Assembly (NCBI GenBank): GCA_951406725.2
Contig: OX597835.1
Span: 19,158,001-19,222,000 of the forward strand
DNA from: Octopus vulgaris
Taxonomy: Eukaryota
DNA length: 64,000 bases
Reading direction: 5' to 3'
Below the pieces are notes generated by a model. It worked only from the letters and a program-made list of their open reading frames with translations. It ran no database searches and was not told where the DNA came from. Numbering within the stretch: the stretch's first letter is position 1; the number at the start of each line of letters is the position of its first letter. Below, in pieces: positions 7,200 to 51,370 of this stretch. Both the position numbers and the translations under genes were made by a program.

Positions 7200-8300
7200 C
7201 ATGTTTATTAAAGCAGAAAACAAAAAACAAGAAAAAATATTTATGTAGAAAACAACCAAACAACAACAAATTACTAACCGATAACGTGACTAAAACACAT
7301 GAAAACAAATAAAGAAATATCCAGAAAAATAGAAGACAATATAGAAAAGCTTATGCAAGAAAATCCTTCTTTAATTCCGAAAGACCATAAAATAACTTGA
7401 CGTAAAATGCTGGCTCTAGTATAATAAATCTCACCATATGCGAAATAAGGATTATTAATAAATCCTAATTAGATAATATTATACGACATATCAGAGCATA
7501 CTCAAATCTTACTCAATGGATAATCAGTAATGCAACTATTGAAACGTTTCACAAAATAGATGATAGACCCAAATGCATGTTTATAGAATTCAATATCGTA
7601 GATTTCTACCCCTCGATCTCCAAAAGCTTACTTCAGGGGGCACTTGAATTTAGTAAAATATATGTCACTATAATGCAAGGAAGTCATCACTTTTTTTACG
7701 ATAATTCCTATTGGGTAAAAATAACGAATACTGACGAGATATTTGATGTGGCAATGGGGAGCTATGACGGTCCAAGTATAGCTGACCATGTAGACCTTTA
7801 TATCTTAGATACCCGTAAATAAAGAAATTACAGAATTTAACATAGGTTTATATATGGATGATAATCTAGGAGTAGTATATAATGAAAACGGACATGATAT
7901 GGATAGAATAAAAAAAAAATTGTGCAAAATATTTAGCCAAACGCAATTAATTATGACGGTCCAAATATAGCTGACCATGTAGACCTTTATATCCTAGATA
8001 CTCTTAAAACAAGAAATTAAAGCATTTAACATAGGTTTATATATGGATGATAATCTAGGAGTAGTATATAATGAAAACGGACATGATATTAGTCTTTACT
8101 CTTTTACTCTTTTACTTGTTTCAGTCATTTGACTGCGGCCATGCTGGAGCACCGCCTTTAATCGAGCAACTCAACCCCGGGACTTATTCTTTTGTAAGCC
8201 CAGTACTTATTCTATCGGTCTCTTTTGCCGAACCGCTAAGTGACGGGGACGTAAACACACCAGCATTGGTTGTCAATAAATGCTAGGGGGACAAACACAA

Positions 8301-8333
<33 letters not shown>

Positions 8334-8780
8334 CATACATATATACGACAGGCTTCTTTCAGTTTCCGTCTACCAAATCCACTCACAAGGCATTGGTCGG
8401 CCCGGGGCTATAGCAGAAGACACTTGCCCAAGATGCCACGCAGTGGGACTGAACCCGGAACCATGTGGTTGGTTAGCAAGCTACTTACCACACAGCCACT
8501 CCTGCACCTATATGGATAGAAAAAAAGAAAAAAAGTTGTGCAAAATATTTAGCCAATCACAATTAATACAAACCTTAAAGAAGTCAACTTCCTAGACATT
8601 ACCATGAATCTTAACAGGAAAATTTAAACCCTATGAGAGACAAAACAGGAAGTCTCGTACATAGACATAAGTCACAACCATCCACCCACCCGCATCAATT
8701 AAACAAATGAGTAACATTATTAGCAGGCGCGTCTCCAATTTATCCACTGGCAAAGACACTTTAGAAAAAAACTGCCCCAT
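7200..8780 (+). pseudogene. Penelope-like retroelement reverse transcriptase remnant with an internal duplication and a SINE insertion
   Basis: KDHK, FNIVDFYPSI, FDVAMGSYDG, IGLYMDDNLG, NLKEVNFLDI and NHPP motifs in PLE RT order; ~190-bp tandem duplication (about 7762-7950 and 7952-8090). Confidence 0.85.
8093..8508 (-). mobile_element. Full-length SINE family B (tRNA head, CORE-like segment, internal microsatellite, LINE-derived tail ending in GAGTAAAA repeats)
   Basis: Many near-identical copies in the window; inserted within the PLE RT remnant. Confidence 0.92.
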
Positions 8781-9550: not shown

Positions 9551-9552
<2 letters not shown>

Positions 9553-9707
9553 TAAAGTTTACGAAAAAAAACGAAGACAGGTGGTGTACAAAACAAACAG
9601 GTGTATTAGTATAACGCTGAGGAATAGCAAAAGTCTTTTACGTTTCGAGCCTACGCTCTTCTACAGAAAGAGACACAGAAAAAACAAGGAGAGAAAAAAA
9701 GGAGAGA

Positions 9708-10970: not shown

Positions 10971-11001
10971 CTATTTGAACTGCGCGTTATATACGCCACA
11001 G

Positions 11002-11380
11002 TGGAGGCGCAATAGCCCAGTGGTTAGGGCAGCGGACTCGCGGTCGTAGGATCGCGGTTTCGATTCCCAGACCGGGCGTTGTGAGTGTTTATTGAGCGAA
11101 GACACCTAAAGCTCCACGAGGCTCCGGCAAGGGATGGTGGTGATCCCTGCTGTACTCTTTCACCACAACTTTCTCTCACTCTTACTTCCTGTTTCTGTTG
11201 TACCTGTATTTCAAAGGGTCGGCCTTATCACTCTCTGTGTCACGCTGAATATCCCCGAGAACTACGTTAAGTGTACACGTGTCTGTGGATGTAGCCACTT
11301 ACACGTTAATTTCACGAGCAGGCTGTTCCGTTGATCGGATCAACCGGAACTCTCCTCGTCGGAACCGACGGAGTGCTTCC
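11002..11380 (+). mobile_element. Full-length SINE family A
   Basis: A/B boxes; TSD tatatacgcca on both sides. Confidence 0.92.
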
Positions 11381-12525: not shown

Positions 12526-12729
12526 TTTCTACCGTTGTTTTAACATTTTAGCATAGGTCTACGTTGGAGTAACATGTGTAAGTGTGTATGGCTGATTTTT
12601 GTGCTTCGATATTTCCACGACGTTGCAATCATCTCTCTAAGTATAGCAATACCTATATCTGCAAACGTGTTTAAGGTATATATGTATGTGTTGACCAATG
12701 TGTTTCTATCGTGTGTTTATGTGTACGTG

Positions 12730-13130
12730 TGGAGGCGCAATGGCCCAGTGGTTAGGGCACAAGACTCGCGGTCATAGGATCGCGGTTTCGATTCCCAGAC
12801 CGGGCGTTGTGAGTGTTTATTGAGCGAAAACACCTAAAAGCTCCACGAGGCTCCGGCAGGGGATGGTGGTGATCCCTGCTGTACTCTTTCACCACAACTT
12901 TCTCTCACTCTTACTTCCTGTTTCTGTTGTACCTGTATTTCAAAGGGGCCGGCCTTGTCACTCTCTGTGTCACGCTGAATATCCCCGAGAACTACGCTAA
13001 GGGTGCGCGTGTCTGTGGAGTGCTCAGCCACTTACACGTTAATTTCACGAGCAGGCTGTTCCGTTGATTCGGATCAACCGGAACCCTCATCGTCGTAACC
13101 GACGGAGTGCTTCCATTCCATTCCATTCCA
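12730..13130 (+). mobile_element. Full-length SINE family A with a (TTCCA)n tail
   Basis: TSD ttatgtgtacgt. Confidence 0.92.
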
Positions 13131-18146: not shown

Positions 18147-19378
18147 CCACCATCAAGTGTAAAAGTAAAGTATTTGTTACTGGTTCGAAATTAAACTGAC
18201 AGGAGAGAATGTCGTTATGTAAATCTATTTGTAGGCCAAGCCAGTGTACATACTCCACGCTACATTATTATTAGATAAATGCGGAGCGTTAGGAATTGGA
18301 GAGAAAAACTCGAAGGGTTCTCATAAAACAACGCCGAGCACCGTTAATGTAATTTCGAAAGGATCTGCTTAGCAACAAATCAAAAAGACTCTAAGGGAGT
18401 GGAGGTTTGTTAAATACAGAACAAATTTTCAGTGCTGTAATTTGGGGTTTTAAAACTGTTTTCAGGTGTGAAGTAATTATATGATCTGAAATATCGAAGA
18501 CGTCATTGAAACGTAGAGTTACATTAAGAAGAGACGAAGAGCGGCAGAATAAATATCAGCGAATAGAAAGAATTACTAAGCCGATTCATACATACGCTAA
18601 ACCAGGGATGTTGGAAATAAAGAACGTTGGTTGTGGCCGAGAGAAAAATTCTGAAATGAGAAACTGAAACACAAATTAGAGTCGCCCAGAAACAAGAAAT
18701 TACAACGCACTAGATAAAGGCAAATATTAATAAGATTAAATCAGAGAGCAAAAGCAGAATTTGTGAGAACGGAGAAATAATAATATAGCTGTTAAATCAA
18801 TGCAAAAAGCCAGCACAAAAGGAATATAGGTACATGAATGAGAGTATCATTGAAAATTACATCAGATGTTAGGATATTAGTCAAATTTGTGGATTCGAAG
18901 TTAGAGGATGTGTGGTATGAAGAAGAACCAGATACTATGATGGTAAATTACGAATGATCTTAGAGGATTTCAGTGTAGAAAGCAATATTGAAGCAAGAGA
19001 CACAACAAATATGACCGTGGATGTCAGAGAAAGACACAAAAAGACAATATAAGGTCTTTGACTTTGCAACCCTGTAATGTAAAGGAATGGACATGGAAAA
19101 AAATCTATGTCGTTCAAGAATATCAGAATGCAGGCAGAGGAGTAACGCAGGCCATAGTGGTAATGATAAACGTTAGTGGTCATACACTCCAGCTTCATGT
19201 CGATGAAGTGTGTCCGTATACATTCTTATTATCTGCCATGTAAAAACATGTACACATGTATTTGTATTTGTACGTATGAGTGTGCATTGGCACATATATG
19301 TTTATGTATGCGTGAATATACACGTTATGTGTGTATGTGCGCGTGTGTTTGTACATATGTATATGTATGTATGTATGT

Positions 19379-19527
19379 ACTTAGCGGTTCGGCAAAGAGC
19401 CCGATAGATTAAGTACTGGGCTTACAAAGAATAAGTCCCGGGGTCGATTTGTTCGACTAAAGGCGGTGCTCCAGCATGGCCGCAGTCAAATGACTGAAAC
19501 AAGTAAAAGAGTTAAAGAGTAAAAAGA

Positions 19528-19529
<2 letters not shown>
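19379..19529 (+). mobile_element. 5'-truncated SINE-B
   Basis: acttagcggttcggcaaa...gagtaaaaagag. Confidence 0.85.
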
Positions 19530-19579
<50 letters not shown>

Positions 19580-19582
19580 GTG

Positions 19583-19615
<33 letters not shown>

Positions 19616-19667
19616 GTGTATATATATATATATACTTTATTTAAAGCAGCAGAAAATTCAACAAAAT

Positions 19668-19705
19668 CTGTTACTCTGAGTTTCTCGTTGCCGTTCATCA
19701 GACAG
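19668..19705 (-). ncRNA. Minimal type I hammerhead ribozyme with canonical core
   Basis: CUGU-CUGAUGA-ACG-GCAA-CGA-GAAAC-UCAGA-GUA-ACAG. Confidence 0.75.
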
Positions 19706-19809
19706 TTTTTGCTACATACATACATACATATACATATGTACAAACACACGCGCACATACACACATAACGTGTATATTCACGCAAACATAAACATATATGT
19801 GAGCAAAAA

Positions 19810-19847
19810 CTGTCTGATAAACGGCAACGAGAAACTCAGAGTAACAG
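19810..19847 (+). ncRNA. Hammerhead copy with a core mutation (CUGAUAA)
   Basis: AAAACUGU-CUGAUAA-ACGGCAACGA-GAAAC-UCAGA-GUA-ACAGUUUU. Confidence 0.6.
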
Positions 19848-19948
19848 TTTTGTTGAATTTTCTGCTGCTTTAAATAAAGCATATTACTCTACCACTGGTA
19901 TTTGAGTACTCTTTTTTCCACCTTGTTTCACATTTATGTGTTTACTCC

Positions 19949-20368
<420 letters not shown>

Positions 20369-25269: not shown

Positions 25270-25609
25270 AATAATAATAAATATTAGGGAATGAATCCAA
25301 AATTACAGGGAAAAATCAGATTTAGGGTTAAATCCAATTTTATAGTAAAATATTATATAATATAATTCGAGACAAAACCACTATTTTAAAACCAAACAAG
25401 GAAAGACTTAATCAATACATAAAATTTTAATATAAATTAAATAAACCGCCACTACAAATGTTTCATGTCTGCTCCGACAATCTTCAGGTGGATTTGTCGG
25501 AGCAGACATGAAACATTTGTAGTGGCGGTTTATTTAATTTATATTAAAATTTTATGTATTGATTAAGTCTTTCCTTGTTTGGTTTTAAAATAGTGGTTTT
25601 GTCTCGAAT

Positions 25610-25620
<11 letters not shown>
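25270..25620. mobile_element. TA-anchored palindromic module (family H1) with ~127-bp arms
   Basis: Arms 25354-25480 and 25494-25620 look perfectly complementary by eye; homologous to 50641-51260 and 44270-44390. Confidence 0.85.
25449..25491 (-). ncRNA. Minimal type I hammerhead ribozyme
   Basis: CCAC-CUGAAGA-UUGUC-GGAGCA-GACAU-GAAAC-AUUU-GUA-GUGG. Confidence 0.78.
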
Positions 25621-26155: not shown

Positions 26156-26524
26156 ATGACTGAATACTGACTGTAAATTCAATACTTGCTGAAATTTAAA
26201 AGTATAAGAAATGTTGGAAAATTGGTAGAGAAACTGAAACGGATGCCGGAAAGTTCGCACGTACACACACACATACACACACACACACACACACATACAC
26301 ACACACACTCATGCATGTGTTTGTGTGTGTGTGCGTATAATTTGAGGATATCATTAAATCGATTATATCATTGGTTAGCGTATAAAAACACCACATCGGT
26401 AAAATTAATATTTAAGCATATTTTATAAATATATAATTTATAATTGTGTAATTAAATTTATACCGATATGGTTTCTATACGCTGGTCACTGCTATAATAA
26501 TTTTAGTGACTCCATATAAATTCT

Positions 26525-26795
26525 TTAAATCGTTTCAGTTTCAAAGCTACGGTCATGCTGGGCACCACCGTTGACTGTGGTACACCGTTACATGAATCCT
26601 CCTCTGATATCTGGCATCTGGAACCCTTGACAAGAGGAAATCAAGTTTTGTTTTGAAGGTACCTGCATCCATATCATGCAAGTCTCTCACACATTTTGGA
26701 AGGATATTGAAGAGCTGTGGGCCCTTAAAACCAAAGCTGTTGGCGTATCTCGTCCTGTATTTTGATGGAGATACTGGGATATTTGGCACTATGCT
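26525..26795 (-). pseudogene. CR1/L2-group LINE ORF2 C-terminus and 3' end
   Basis: NSFGFKGPQLFNILPKCVRDL...FKTKLDFLLSRVPD; the 3' end resembles the SINE-B tail. Confidence 0.8.
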
Positions 26796-26928
26796 ATTGA
26801 GTGGGTCTGGTGTTTGTCATTATATATACAATTACAAACACCAGACCCACTCCTGACCGTAACTTTGAAACTGAACGATTTTTAAAAATATATATAGAAT
26901 CACTAAAATTATTATAGCAGTGACCAGC

Positions 26929-26961
<33 letters not shown>

Positions 26962-27144: not shown

Positions 27145-28411
27145 ACGCACACGCACACACACACATATATATGCATGTATATCCAACCATAGTCCAAAAT
27201 AATATTAACGAAATATACGTACAAGTATCTATAAATATATTTATCGATCTCTCTATCTATCCATATATCTGTGTGTTTGTGCGTAATCCTATAAATGTAT
27301 ATAAGTACATACATCTATACATGTACTTATATACTTATAAATATGTATATCTGTACATGCTTGTGAGCGTGTGCATGCATTTACATAGAGAGAGAGAGTG
27401 AAACATAGAGAATGTGAAATTGGAAGCGAGATATAATATCTGATATTTGCAAATATATTAATTTGCTTCAGCAAAAGGAAAAATATTACTAACTTCCAAT
27501 ACTTTTCTATTGACCTCTCCTTCAAATGAATCTCGAATTTTTACGTCTTTCATCATAATGTTACAATATGGATTCATTGAAGCATTCTTGTTTCTGTTGC
27601 ATCATACATAAACTAGAAAACAATGTGTATGATAAATCGTATTGTAACCTTCAGCTTCGATAAATAAACACTTATTTTCTATTCTGCGTATATCGTGTAT
27701 TTTCAACTCTACTCAATATCTTTATATATATATTCTTTGCTTTTGTCATTGTTTTCACCAATATTAGAAGAAAGTCTCACAACATTACATTTCAGATTTT
27801 CCTGCATGGAATGAAATTGATGAGGTACTTCAATATCCCAACGGATTTTCACTCAGTAAGTCTTTCTAAGGATTCCTTGAAACAAGAATTGAATCATCAA
27901 TTTTGAAGCTCATTCACTTGAGTGGATATTATGAAGGAAATTATGTTTCACGAACAATTTCATTCAAATGCATTATGGCAACCTAAGCTAAAAGGACCTT
28001 TATAAATACAATAGCTCTTGTTATAAAGCATGATTAGTTGCTGTGGTGTTGTCACCTTTTCAATATTAGTATTGAAAAGATTTGTATTAAAATTCATATT
28101 ATCTTAATCGACAATGATATATTAAGACAGCAAGCAATCCATGTAACATGGCGGTTGAACTCACATGCTAAATGGTGTATAACAGAGAATTAACCGTAGT
28201 AGATGTGTATCTGACTGCTAGAAATAGCAGCTGGTGGATCCATGTAGAAAACGTTGTGGAATCAATAATTGCTATTAAAAAGAATTCCTTTAAAAAAATT
28301 GCTATTAAAAATAGCAGCCAAGTTTCCCCTCAAGCCAATGATTGCATTTCTTTATCAGAAATTACATGGGACATATAATTGTCAAATCTACAATCGAAAA
28401 AATCTGAGGTG

Positions 28412-28657
28412 GCCGGCGTAATGTCGGGCTGGCGTAATGTCGGGCCGGCATAATGGCGGGCCGGCGTAATGGCGGGCCGGCGTAATGTCGGGCCGGCGTA
28501 ATGTCGGGCCGGCGTAATGTCGGGCCGGCATAATGGCGGGCCGGCGTAATGGCGGGCCGGCGTAATGGCGGGCCGGCGTAATGGCGGGCCGGCGTAATGG
28601 CGGGCCGGCGTAATGGCGGGCCGGCGTAATGGCGGGCCGGCGTAATGTCGAGCCGGC
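28412..28657. repeat. GC-rich 16-bp minisatellite (GCCGGCGTAATGKCGG), about 15 copies
   Basis: Seen directly. Confidence 0.95.
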
Positions 28658-29029
28658 AATACAGTAAACAAATACACGCTTTCGACTAGAATTTACATGA
28701 AATAACATGAAATAAAATTTGTTTGCATACATCTTCGAGGGGGTGCTCAACAGTAACTGGCTTTGGTTAAAAGAATATACAAGATAATCAGTTAATTCAA
28801 CATATTCAACTCTCAGATTCACACACATATTGCTGTGGTCCTTCAGTTTTTCTAAGCTCTGTCAAAGAAAACGAAATCGTAAGACTGCAATCAGGCTTTT
28901 CGCGATAACACTAAATTTAGAGTCACTCTACCACCGCCTCATATAAGCATATATATGTATATATATGTATATATATATATATATTAAGTTCAGTATGTGG
29001 CAAAGTAATTTATTTTACTAAGACCTAAT

Positions 29030-29130
<101 letters not shown>

Positions 29131-30474: not shown

Positions 30475-30759
30475 ATCAACAATTGAGGGTAAAATTAATT
30501 AATTAATCAATTTCACCAAGTGTTCAGTATGTAAAAGGACCATTTAAGGCGAATTCAAAATATTACATTATATAATTAGGGCTTAGTAAAATAAATTACT
30601 TTGCCACATACTGAACTTAGTAGAAATAGCAGCCCCAAAAAAATGGCAGCCCAAAAAAATAGTAGTAGAAATGCTAAGAAAATTTTTTTTGGCTGCTATT
30701 TCTACTAAGTTCAGTATGTGGCAAAGTAATTTATTTTACTAAGCCCTAATTATATAATG

Positions 30760-30763
<4 letters not shown>
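30475..30763. mobile_element. TA-anchored inverted-repeat module (arms about 30558-30635 and 30690-30763)
   Basis: Inverted arms seen directly; an arm fragment recurs at 28984-29040; no hammerhead core found. Confidence 0.65.
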
Positions 30764-33726: not shown

Positions 33727-33774
33727 AACTCAGAGTAACAGCTTTTTGTTAAATTTCTGGTGCTTTAAAATAAA

Positions 33775-33814
<40 letters not shown>

Positions 33815-34085
33815 TTTATTTTAAAGCACCAGAAATTTAACAAAAAGCTGTTACTCGGAGTTTCACGTCCCCGTTCGTAGGACAGTTTTGCTAAAATAGA
33901 ACCGAGATGACAATTCTGTCAAGACTAGTATAAACGTTACACCTTTAAAAATGGATTTGTTTGATTGGTCCTTTCAAATAACGGTCATATGCGAGTGATA
34001 AAGAAAAATAAACAAAAAGAAACAAAACAAAGTATTTGAGTACTCTTTTTTCCACTTTGTTTCACATTTATGTGTTTACTCCGGT
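33727..34085. mobile_element. Family H2 fragments: inverted arms around (TA)n, a degenerate hammerhead (about 33848-33885, minus) and a 3' piece
   Basis: Minus strand CUGU-CCUACGA-ACG-GGGA-CGU-GAAAC-UCCGA-GUA-ACAG; 34031-34085 matches 19898-19950. Confidence 0.7.
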
Positions 34086-40298: not shown

Positions 40299-40396
<98 letters not shown>

Positions 40397-40664
40397 CCCT
40401 CTTCTCCTCTCTCTACACTACACCATACGACTTTACACATCACATCATATATACGTACACACGTCTAGACCTCTCATACGCACTAATACTCTCTCATACA
40501 CACACACACACTCTTCTCATACACACACACACACTCTTATGTTTGAGCGAGGTCATTCAACCCTATTATCTCCCCTAATTTCGCTCTTGCGTCTCATGTT
40601 TGATCTTTGACTTCTGGCCGAAATCAGATCGCCATGTTGATTCGGTAGCTTCTGCACGCATATT

Positions 40665-40866
40665 TTTTCTCTCCTTCTTTCTGTGTTTTTTCTCTGTGTA
40701 TCTTTCTGTTGAAGAGCGTAGGCTCGAAACGTTAAAGACTTGTTTCATTTATATTTCCTGAACGCCATACTAATACAATTGTTTGTTTGCATTCTACCTG
40801 CCTTCGTCTTTTGTTTATTTCCGTAAACCTGCCTTCGTCTTTTGTCTATTTTCATAAAGCTTCCCG

Positions 40867-40870
<4 letters not shown>
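40665..40870 (+). mobile_element. Family H3 PLE-like terminal module with a hammerhead-like motif at 40701-40738
   Basis: UCUUU-CUGUUGA-A-GAGC-GUAG-GCUC-GAAAC-GUU-AAAGA; ends in (TA)n. Confidence 0.65.
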
Positions 40871-43560: not shown

Positions 43561-43678
43561 GTCTGTGTTCGTATCACGTTGGAAGCACCGGTTCTCGTCC
43601 GATCACCGAAGTTAAGCAACGTCGACCCTAGTCAGTACTTATATGGGTGACCGATTGGGAAACCTAGATGCAGTAAGC
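43561..43678 (+). pseudogene. 5S rRNA pseudogene (dispersed, diverged)
   Basis: atcacgttggaagcaccggttctcgtccgatcaccgaagttaagcaacgtcga...agtactt..atgggtgaccg...gggaa; substitutions near box C and in the terminal stem; no oligo-T terminator. Confidence 0.88.
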
Positions 43679-44190: not shown

Positions 44191-44267
<77 letters not shown>

Positions 44268-44268
<1 letters not shown>

Positions 44269-44384
44269 TAATAATATTAGGGAGTAAATCCAAATTTACA
44301 GGGAAAAATTAGATTTAGGATTAAATCCAATTTTACAGTATGTTTATCACTGTTTGATTTGCTTAATAGTGGTTTTATCTCTAA

Positions 44385-44390
<6 letters not shown>
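44268..44390. mobile_element. Family H1 module lacking the central palindrome and ribozyme
   Basis: Left part matches 25275-25347; right part matches 51130-51171; (TA)n on both sides. Confidence 0.7.
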
Positions 44391-49302: not shown

Positions 49303-49689
49303 TGGAGGCGCAATGGCCCAGTGGTTAGGGCAGCGGACATGCGGTCATAGGATCGCGGTTTCGATTCCCAGACCGGGCGTTGGGAGTGTTTATTGAGCGA
49401 AAACACCTAAAGCTCCACGAGGCTCCGGCAGGGGATGGTGGTGATCCCTGCTGTACTCTTTCACCACAACTTTCTCTCACTCTTACTTCCAGTTTCTGTT
49501 GTACCTGTATTTCCAAGGGGCAGGCCTTGTCACTCTCTGTGTCACGCTGAATATCCCCGAGAACTACGTTAAGTGTACACGTGTCTGTGGAGTGCTCAGC
49601 CACTTACACATAAATTTCTCGAGCAGGCTGTTCCGTTGATTCGGATCAACCGGAACCCTCGTCGTCGTAACCGACGGAGTGCTTCCACC
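49303..49689 (+). mobile_element. Full-length SINE family A
   Basis: TSD ataggctac. Confidence 0.92.
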
Positions 49690-50582
49690 ATAGGCTACTA
49701 GAAAGAATTTGTAAAATATTTTCGTTCAACACAGTTCCAGGCTTGTATTTATTTTATTACGTTGTGAATAATGTTTTTATTTCTCTTTTTACACGTCGTT
49801 CTTCTCAAAGATATCAATTACACAATCATTTAATATGCAGTATTTTAGTATTAGTTTCTCTTACCTTGTCAGTATTATACACAACAAGACAAATAGTTAC
49901 ATAATTAGCAGCTTCTGTACCCGGTACACCTCAACATCTACCTGAATGACTCCATTTCATCTTCGAGAATATTCTACGTTTCCAAATCAATATATCATAT
50001 TGTCAGCCTTATACACCTGATATTAACCCCATGAAGTACACAGAATGCATATCCGATGATTTTATATGACGGTCCAATAACAATATGTAGTAATTCATTT
50101 CCACAGGGCGCCATTTTTTTTTACATCAATTGCAAGAGGGCCAGGAAATAACCTGCTGCATATATATTTGCACAACTACAGCATAGCTTCAGGCTATATG
50201 CTACAAAATATAAATGACGTTTTGCTCTCTGCTATCTGCACGCATTTCACAAACCAGTTATTTAGAACGACAGCGAAATTTCCTGTTGCTGTCTACAAGG
50301 GATCTCCACCTTCTGTGACAACTTTCATTGATATTTCAACGGAATATTTACCTAAAACCTCCAAGAAGGTAAGGAGATAGACAAAGAACATGCTGTCTTC
50401 GCTTCAGTTTTGAAGCTACTAATGCATCAAGAAGAAAGACTTGTTACAGATCTAGCTTGTCACTGTTTTAATTCATAGTCTTGTTTATCACATATTTATC
50501 ACATCTTTTTCCAACAAAATCTAAGGCCAAATATTTGCTGTACAAATATATATAAGCATGTATGAATCTATGTATATATAAT

Positions 50583-50647
<65 letters not shown>

Positions 50648-50777
50648 TTAGAGATAAAACCACTATTAAGCAAATCAAACAATGAAAAACTTAAGCCAAT
50701 ACATAAAATTAATTAATTTATATTATTTTAAATATATATCAAAATTATTAAAAGTTTAATAAAAATAATGAGTAAAA

Positions 50778-50846
50778 CACTACGATCGTTTCATGGCTGT
50801 CCAATTCGTAATAATTCGAGTTATGGTTACAGTCAATCTTCAGGTG
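50778..50846 (-). ncRNA. Type I hammerhead with extended stem II and palindromic loop III (ACGAUCGU)
   Basis: CAC-CUGAAGA-UUGACUGU...ACAGCCAU-GAAAC-GAUC-GUA-GUG. Confidence 0.75.
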
Positions 50847-50965
50847 ATTAAAATATCAGACTCTATATGTTTTAATTTAATGTCTTCTTTATCACATATT
50901 TATCACATCTTTTTCTAACAAAATCTAAGGCCAAATATATTGAATATAGAGTCTGATATTTTAAT

Positions 50966-51034
50966 CACCTGAAGATTGACTGTAACCATAACTCGAATTA
51001 TTACGAATTGGACAGCCATGGAACGATCGTAGTG
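50966..51034 (+). ncRNA. Hammerhead copy with a GAAA->GGAA core mutation
   Basis: CAC-CUGAAGA...ACAGCCAU-GGAAC-GAUC-GUA-GUG. Confidence 0.6.
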
Positions 51035-51290
51035 TTTTACTCATTATCTTTTATTAAACTTTTAATAATTTTGATATATATTTAAAATAATATAAATTAA
51101 TTAATTTTATGTATTGGCTTAAGTTTTTCATTGTTTGATTTGCCTAATAGTGGTTTTATCTCTAATTTAATATAATATAATATTTTACTATATAATTGAA
51201 TTCAATCCTAAATCTGATTTTTCCCTGTAAGTTTGGATTTATTCCCTAATATTTTATTATATATATATATGTGTGTATATAATGAAACAG

Positions 51291-51370
<80 letters not shown>

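Follow-up and report, generated by a model that had tools for sequence, protein, structure and literature searches.

A copy of flanking DNA in the loop of a likely Penelope-type inverted-repeat insertion of Octopus vulgaris

Anatomy of the insertion and of its loop

The window analysed here, a 64,000-nucleotide stretch of Octopus vulgaris DNA (contig OX597835.1, positions 19,158,001 to 19,222,000), carries at 50.6 kb an insertion of a repeat family termed H1, consisting of two inverted, head-to-head arms that are identical in 227 of 230 alignment columns. The left arm (50640-50868, minus strand) directs its 3' end outward into a (TA)n tract, and the right arm (50944-51173, plus strand) differs from it at 51021 (G/A), at 51144 (C/T) and by a 1-nt indel at 51048. 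The arms had been put at about 225 bp in the preliminary description, to which it must be added that the right arm alone is extended by a tail of about 120 nt (51174-51290, plus strand), common to the H1 copies at 25.3 and 44.3 kb, the left arm breaking off where the tail would begin. On the left, 50535-50643 comprise uncopied flank and a (TA)n target tract, and the right (TA)n target tract extends from 51291 to 51367; (TA)n bounds both ends in all three H1 copies of the window. The 50.6-kb insertion has neither a discernible target-site duplication nor poly(A).

Each arm can be parsed into a short helix I, the motif CUGAAGA, a 44-nt helix II region, GAAA, a palindromic helix III and a GUA site, the core behind this parse being that of the hammerhead ribozyme. 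Measured against this core (CUGANGA, GAAA and UH, with helix II, a short helix I and a palindromic helix III), the left-arm motif (50776-50849, minus strand) is complete and of the minimal type I, and it folds with -6.8 kcal/mol in helix II and -10.0 kcal/mol in the helix III self-duplex. In the right-arm motif (50963-51036, plus strand) the core A13 is replaced by G at 51021, a position that is A in all aligned contigs of the public runs X2 and X4; the 5' ends of both motifs point toward the loop. Rfam gave no hammerhead match in 50400-51300 even at E 10 and, at the gathering threshold, only a 5S-like match in the whole 64 kb, and unconstrained folding of five hammerhead regions was no better than that of shuffles (z 0 to -1.3). 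The ribozyme call, already made in the preliminary description, thus follows from the motif parse, by which the arms carry putative self-cleaving ribozymes.

This architecture suggests that the H1 element is likely a short remnant, of the terminal-repeat type, of a Penelope-type element (PLE), a relation that had been overlooked together with the known locally templated patches of L1 and R2. In the available parts of the published descriptions, PLE terminal repeats are inverted, head-to-head and optionally tailed (PMC3846280, PMC8557442), and the minimal hammerheads of PLEs sometimes occur in pairs, one on each strand, with 100-700 bp between them (PMC4209133). Like the PLEs of these texts, and of PMC11167929, the H1 element combines inverted pseudo-LTRs in head-to-head orientation, minimal hammerheads located on opposite strands at a distance of a few hundred bases, a tail on one repeat only (as also in the 25.3-kb copy), an AT-rich or (TA)n target and heavy 5' truncation. 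The single ORF with a PLE-type RT and a GIY-YIG endonuclease that characterises EN+ PLEs is absent from it; no ORF was found in the 650-nt element, as expected for a truncated terminal-repeat remnant, and none was found that ties H1 to an RT, the decayed RT-like piece at 7.4-8.7 kb having no link to H1. The locus is non-coding and probably without function.

Between the arms lies a loop (50868-50938, plus strand) in which the local flank at 50464-50534 (plus strand, the donor) is copied in direct orientation, as had been proposed: the two are identical at 66 of 71 positions, and the local alignment score of 117 compares with a shuffle maximum of 32, with none of 100 shuffles equalling it. The loop is a locally templated insertion in the sense of an insert that matches DNA beside its own insertion site, the donor ending 109 nt from the left arm. 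The donor contains an 11-bp tandem repeat and ends within a 10-bp palindrome. Four of the five substitutions (50878, 50880, 50881, 50887 and 50916) fall in the first 20 nt of the loop, the end copied last under a templated-patch model (p = 0.024, a clustering noticed post hoc), and three of them (50878-50881) make loop positions 10-14 repeat positions 5-9 in a slippage-like manner. Microhomology amounts to 1 nt at the left junction and possibly to about 4 nt at the priming end, and the right junction holds five extra bases (50939-50943, plus strand) with no exact match to donor or left arm. No third copy of the loop was found in the window (best other score 25 by local alignment, with blastn at word size 7 in agreement).

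Other two-armed insertions and the abundance of H1

Seven two-armed insertions between (TA)n tracts were recognised in the window, at 19.6, 25.3, 25.7, 30.5, 33.8, 44.3 and 50.6 kb; a hairpin at 26.3-26.9 kb was excluded from this set because it lacks a hammerhead motif and contains a LINE-like end. The loop was copied from the local flank in two of the seven (at 50.9 and 19.7 kb). The 19.7-kb case belongs to another family, H2, and is a head-to-head element (19635-19950) with a tail on its right arm only, whose loop (19713-19801) matches, in inverted orientation, a donor at 19291-19379 (plus strand) located 255 nt from the arm (88 of 89 positions identical, score 173). The earlier claim that the same phenomenon recurs here in a different family was correct as to local capture, but the copy is inverted and not direct; local capture in two families, from which a shared mechanism that duplicates host sequence into hairpin loops had been proposed, is supported, the opposite orientations having been overlooked. 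Both local donors sit on the side of the tail-less arm, and the distance from the right end of the donor to the first base of the loop is 333 nt in both (50534-50868 and 19379-19713), with family, orientation and intervening sequence all differing. This equality may be a matter of chance, since it concerns two cases only and unstable TA tracts lie in between.

Among the H1 copies, a survey of spacer-flank identity within the window found it in one of three. The copy at 25271-25614 has head-to-head arms identical at 127 of 127 positions and a 13-nt loop of purely element sequence, and in the copy at 44262-44388 an inverted tail piece is joined directly to a short arm, with neither overlap nor foreign loop; the tail-less end of the 50.6-kb left arm recurs in both, at 25.6 and 44.4 kb. 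The solo arms of two further families likewise terminate at the tail-less site of their family.

A direct join is seen in three of the seven insertions, where the inner ends are offset by 13 or 25 nt or show no overlap. Symmetric arm ends are seen in the insertions with a foreign or templated loop (0-5 nt at 50.9 kb, 0-1 nt at 19.7 kb, and also at 30.6 kb), and no perfect spacer-less head-to-head pair was found among the seven. The element at 30477-30761 has a 37-nt loop with three pieces of 7-11 nt repeated from its own left arm, the footprint of repeated re-priming; a solo arm of this family lies at 28985-29035. The 33.9-kb insertion includes 138 nt that have no donor in the window and may be element sequence. 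This region (33727-34084) is a tail-to-tail palindrome formed by two H2 insertions, each in one of two neighbouring TA tracts, the second insertion having the 138 nt between arm and tail. No donor was found within 2 kb for the loops at 26556-26853, 30640-30690 and 33894-34031 (scores 16-24, at shuffle level), nor anywhere in the window for the first and the last of these. The left part of 40394-40600 was considered as a donor match and left uncounted, only a low-complexity stretch being matched (score 52). The excluded hairpin (26330-26935) is older, with arms identical at 73 of 81 positions, symmetric inner ends and a 298-nt loop that contains the end of a LINE-like ORF on the minus strand and a 54-nt inner hairpin. 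By eye, 9551-9707 (minus strand) and 40394-40867 represent another family that is flanked by (TA)n and has a hammerhead-like core.

Contigs of runs X2 and X4 and reads of runs X14 and X15 were aligned to 50830-51250, the summed depth being no copy number. Over arm and tail (50965-51249) the contig depth ranges from 14,704 to 242,603 in X2 and from 173,726 to 2,973,956 in X4, versus 0-298 and 0-1,106 over the loop; it is 0 over 50830-50889 and amounts to 298 (X2) and 1,106 (X4) over about the last 36 nt of the loop. Over the innermost 15-20 nt of the arms the X2 depth drops from 14,704 to 2,040 and then to near 0. No contig of X2 or X4 continues across 50939-50949, and no read or contig of the four runs crosses the loop-arm junction or 50830-50889, X14 and X15 being sampled at about 3%. 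The H1 family is very abundant in these runs, and the loop is attached to H1 nowhere else. The spacer is accordingly not a common H1 repeat, in agreement with the preliminary description, being absent from the two other copies of the window, of low depth, and without contigs across its right junction; on the same grounds (other H1 copies without the loop, contigs never joining it to an arm), we rejected the possibility that it is a piece of the H1 consensus.

Contigs of raised depth cover about 50901-50936 without a listed difference from the loop, even at 50916, where they share the T of the loop against a C in the local donor. Some relatives of the donor's 3' half exist in the genome; this half is hence not strictly unique, and the uniqueness previously ascribed to the donor holds within the window but not for its last ~36 nt. 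Relative to all aligned contigs, right arm and tail carry private changes at 51021, 51193 and 51199, and the arms therefore look not homogenised relative to the tail; a minority base at 51068, common to both arms, accounts for about 15% of the X2 depth. In the samples of about 3% of each run, one read of X14 and 3,974 reads of X15 were aligned, the latter derived almost entirely from a tandem satellite with a unit of about 46 nt. At 51099-51141, about 7,000 read joints of X15 reflect this satellite, whose unit resembles part of the H1 arm; X14, which bears the same species label, has the one read. Pattern scans for H1 in metagenome and viral contigs, and for H2 in metagenome contigs, returned 0 loci.

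Origin of the loop

We favour, with a probability of roughly 0.7, an explanation in which a truncated non-coding PLE-like element was inserted into (TA)n and the loop is a flank-templated patch added while two new DNA ends were being joined. The anatomy (arms, motifs, tail, (TA)n and a loop equal to the flank) is observed, and from it we infer every step that follows. A PLE protein acting in trans would cut both strands inside the TA tract, and both 3' ends would prime reverse transcription, one at the end of the tail and the other at an internal, tail-less start, both cDNAs stopping within 5 nt of the same point. As the cDNA ends would then be identical and not complementary, they would be unable to anneal, and a bridge would be needed. 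Resection of the left side would leave its top strand single-stranded, and the right cDNA end could pair with it via about 4 nt (ATAT, 50531-50534), extend 71 nt leftward, release and join the tip of the left cDNA; such priming in trans on the exposed top strand would yield a copy in direct orientation, as seen at 50.9 kb. In the 19.7-kb case it would be the left cDNA that snaps back onto its own strand (with TA shared at 19713), giving an inverted copy. A single-stranded flank is expected to give rise to local copies of both kinds, direct and inverted, so that one geometry would cover both cases. The copying could be due to polymerase theta of the host or to the RT of the element, both of which fit the sequence.

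The tail-less end is a true family end and a real start, because it recurs in all three H1 copies, in the loose ends of contigs (10 of X2 and 26 of X4 enter TA at 51171-51179) and in the solo arms of two families. In vitro, the purified anole PLE protein cleaves AT-rich DNA and extends its two strands, with initiation at two RNA positions that delimit the tail (PMC11167929); these two start sites suggest how one end could receive a cDNA with a tail and the other a cDNA without it. The protein uses uncut RNA as its template (PMC11167929), and the arms run across the ribozyme site, in keeping with this. Several points count against a patch: microhomology at the left junction is 1 nt, and the right junction has five bases without explanation; the donors lie 109 and 255 nt from the arm, whereas L1 templates are typically within 15 bp of the site in the available part of 10.1101/2024.08.27.596794; local capture occurs in only two of seven insertions; and no read or contig of the four runs spans the junctions.

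The comparison of spacer-flank with arm-arm divergence, put forward earlier as a sign of a single event when the two are similar, gives a divided answer. For H1, loop and donor differ at 5 of 71 positions (7.0%) versus 3 of 230 (1.3%) between the arms (Fisher p = 0.020; Poisson probability of five or more loop changes 0.003-0.015), or p = 0.15 if the three-base cluster (a 5-nt slippage) is counted as one event, whereas the 19.7-kb case, with 1 of 89 versus 2 of 79, is compatible with one event. The excess divergence of the H1 loop goes against a plain single event, which is compatible with these numbers only if the changes at 50878-50881 are one slippage or arose during copying.

The equal spacing of the two donors would fit a more specific version of the templated patch, in which, whenever the cDNA ends are identical, the PLE complex bridges them by copying host DNA located on the tail-less side at a fixed distance of 333 nt from the cDNA tip. 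We regard this version as doubtful; if it were true, genomes with tens of thousands of hairpins would record the last step of PLE transposition, and hairpins would be a steady source of short local duplications.

Palindromes can be stabilised by break and repair at their centre, and it is conceivable, if rather unlikely, that a perfect spacer-less palindrome formed first, that its tip later broke as a hairpin or cruciform, and that end-joining inserted a stabilising, flank-templated spacer. This would account for the symmetric arm ends and for the lack of a spacer-less pair among the seven insertions, and the hairpin of the element does fold, as single-stranded DNA, at -236 kcal/mol. However, a later repair predicts a loop younger than the arms, where loop-donor divergence instead exceeds arm-arm divergence, and deletion would be the simpler outcome, yet the inner ends of both arms are kept within 5 nt.

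There is a small chance that a single cDNA produced the whole structure, the RT having first made the tailed arm, then switched template to the flank (or to a read-through RNA containing it) and finally folded back on its own product for the second arm, with resolution into TA by microhomology. Self-priming and template jumps have been proposed for head-to-head PLE repeats in the available part of PMC3846280, contigs of the family rarely or never include the innermost 15-20 nt of the two arms, as if one arm had copied the other, the tail-less end of H1 is TA-rich, and the ends of the 19.7-kb loop are partly complementary. Yet the solo tail-less arms of two families indicate that this end can be reached without fold-back, a top-strand fold-back at 19.7 kb could not give the right arm its tail, and the microhomology available for fold-back at the H1 left junction never exceeds 1 nt.

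An older duplication of the flank, followed by two separate H1 insertions on either side of the second copy, would explain why loop and donor diverge more than the arms, but it is very improbable: two insertions would have to share their 5' end to within 5 nt as well as the minority base at 51068, and to bracket the copy exactly, and the inverted 19.7-kb case is left out. Hardly any weight can be given to a copy from a distant member of a low-copy repeat with a coincidental match nearby, since the raised-depth contigs that equal the loop, including T at 50916, miss its first 33 nt, which the local donor matches, and a repeat with a few tens of members would seldom have one within 500 bp in a large genome; the donor of the 19.7-kb case is local as well. 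A fold-back chimera of the assembly, although the junctions are unspanned by reads or contigs in four runs, has a next to negligible probability in view of the three arm-arm and five loop-donor differences (the latter already read in this sense in the preliminary description), of a left arm that ends at the family's own tail-less end and of an architecture that recurs across families. A large target-site duplication was rejected as unable to yield the inverted 19.7-kb case, and a functional RNA hairpin was rejected as well, nothing being in its favour.

Relation to known systems

The flank-templated patch that we prefer would be a process known in kind from L1, R2 and Pol theta, and the capture is modestly new for PLEs: no report of a local flank copied into an inverted PLE repeat junction was found in the full-text literature, supplements and much early Drosophila Penelope work lying outside the search. 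Compared with the available text on published PLEs, the element has no ORF and tails of about 70-120 nt versus 30-40 nt, and its inverted junction is a local flank copy, whereas a palindrome or an overlap is described there (PMC3846280). Non-element DNA between PLE terminal repeats is known from the Penelope elements of Adineta vaga, where, in the available part of that report (PMC3846280), 0.9-1.5 kb or a whole gene lies between direct repeats and is read as mobilised in trans; here, in contrast, 71-89 nt are copied from within 110-260 nt of the insertion and lie between inverted arms. New PLE insertions in Chlamydomonas are reported without such junction detail in the portion available (PMC9977147).

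For L1, templated insertions of less than 250 bp from beside the site make up 22 of 3,598 insertions in the available text (10.1101/2024.08.27.596794; also PMC11702581). The likeness to L1 twin priming, as described in the same parts of these sources, consists in both target ends being primed, inverted parts being end-joined and nearby DNA being duplicated, but the inverted parts of L1 barely overlap, whereas the arms here overlap across the whole 230 nt. The snap-back 5' junctions of R2, in which the cDNA 3' end primes on cDNA or nearby target, resemble the inverted 19.7-kb loop; in the accessible part of that study (PMC11371274), however, they concern engineered single-arm insertions, and the direct 50.9-kb copy would need priming in trans and not snap-back. 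Insertions by Pol theta likewise use flank templates, iterative re-priming and short microhomology, but the Drosophila examples in the available part of PMC2895639 are shorter (up to ~50 nt) and come without a tie to retrotransposition, and Pol theta is here a candidate only.

The formation of inverted PLE ends has been named as an open question (PMC11167929, and the available part of PMC8557442). From a flank-derived loop one can read which strand lay exposed and over what distance, as well as which cDNA end did the copying, and the locus is likely a fossil record of a step of PLE movement. As the H1 family is very abundant, a genome survey would be able to test twin priming against fold-back and to gauge how much host DNA is duplicated by PLEs.

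Elsewhere in the window, a decayed RT-like ORF at 7469-8700, with a YMDD motif, a 138-nt internal duplication and SINE-like insertions, presumably resembles a PLE RT; it matches no Pfam family (Pfam on four translated pieces of the window gave 0 families), and its Atlas look-alike cluster has RVT_1 in 19% of members. A 5S rRNA-like sequence (43561-43676; Rfam, 78.7 bits) is located between microsatellites and is either a pseudogene or a 5S-derived SINE, and a minisatellite with a 16-nt period occupies 28411-28658. Dispersed repeats of about 385 nt and 94-95% identity occur at 1209-1593, 11001-11380, 12729-13114 and 49303-49687.
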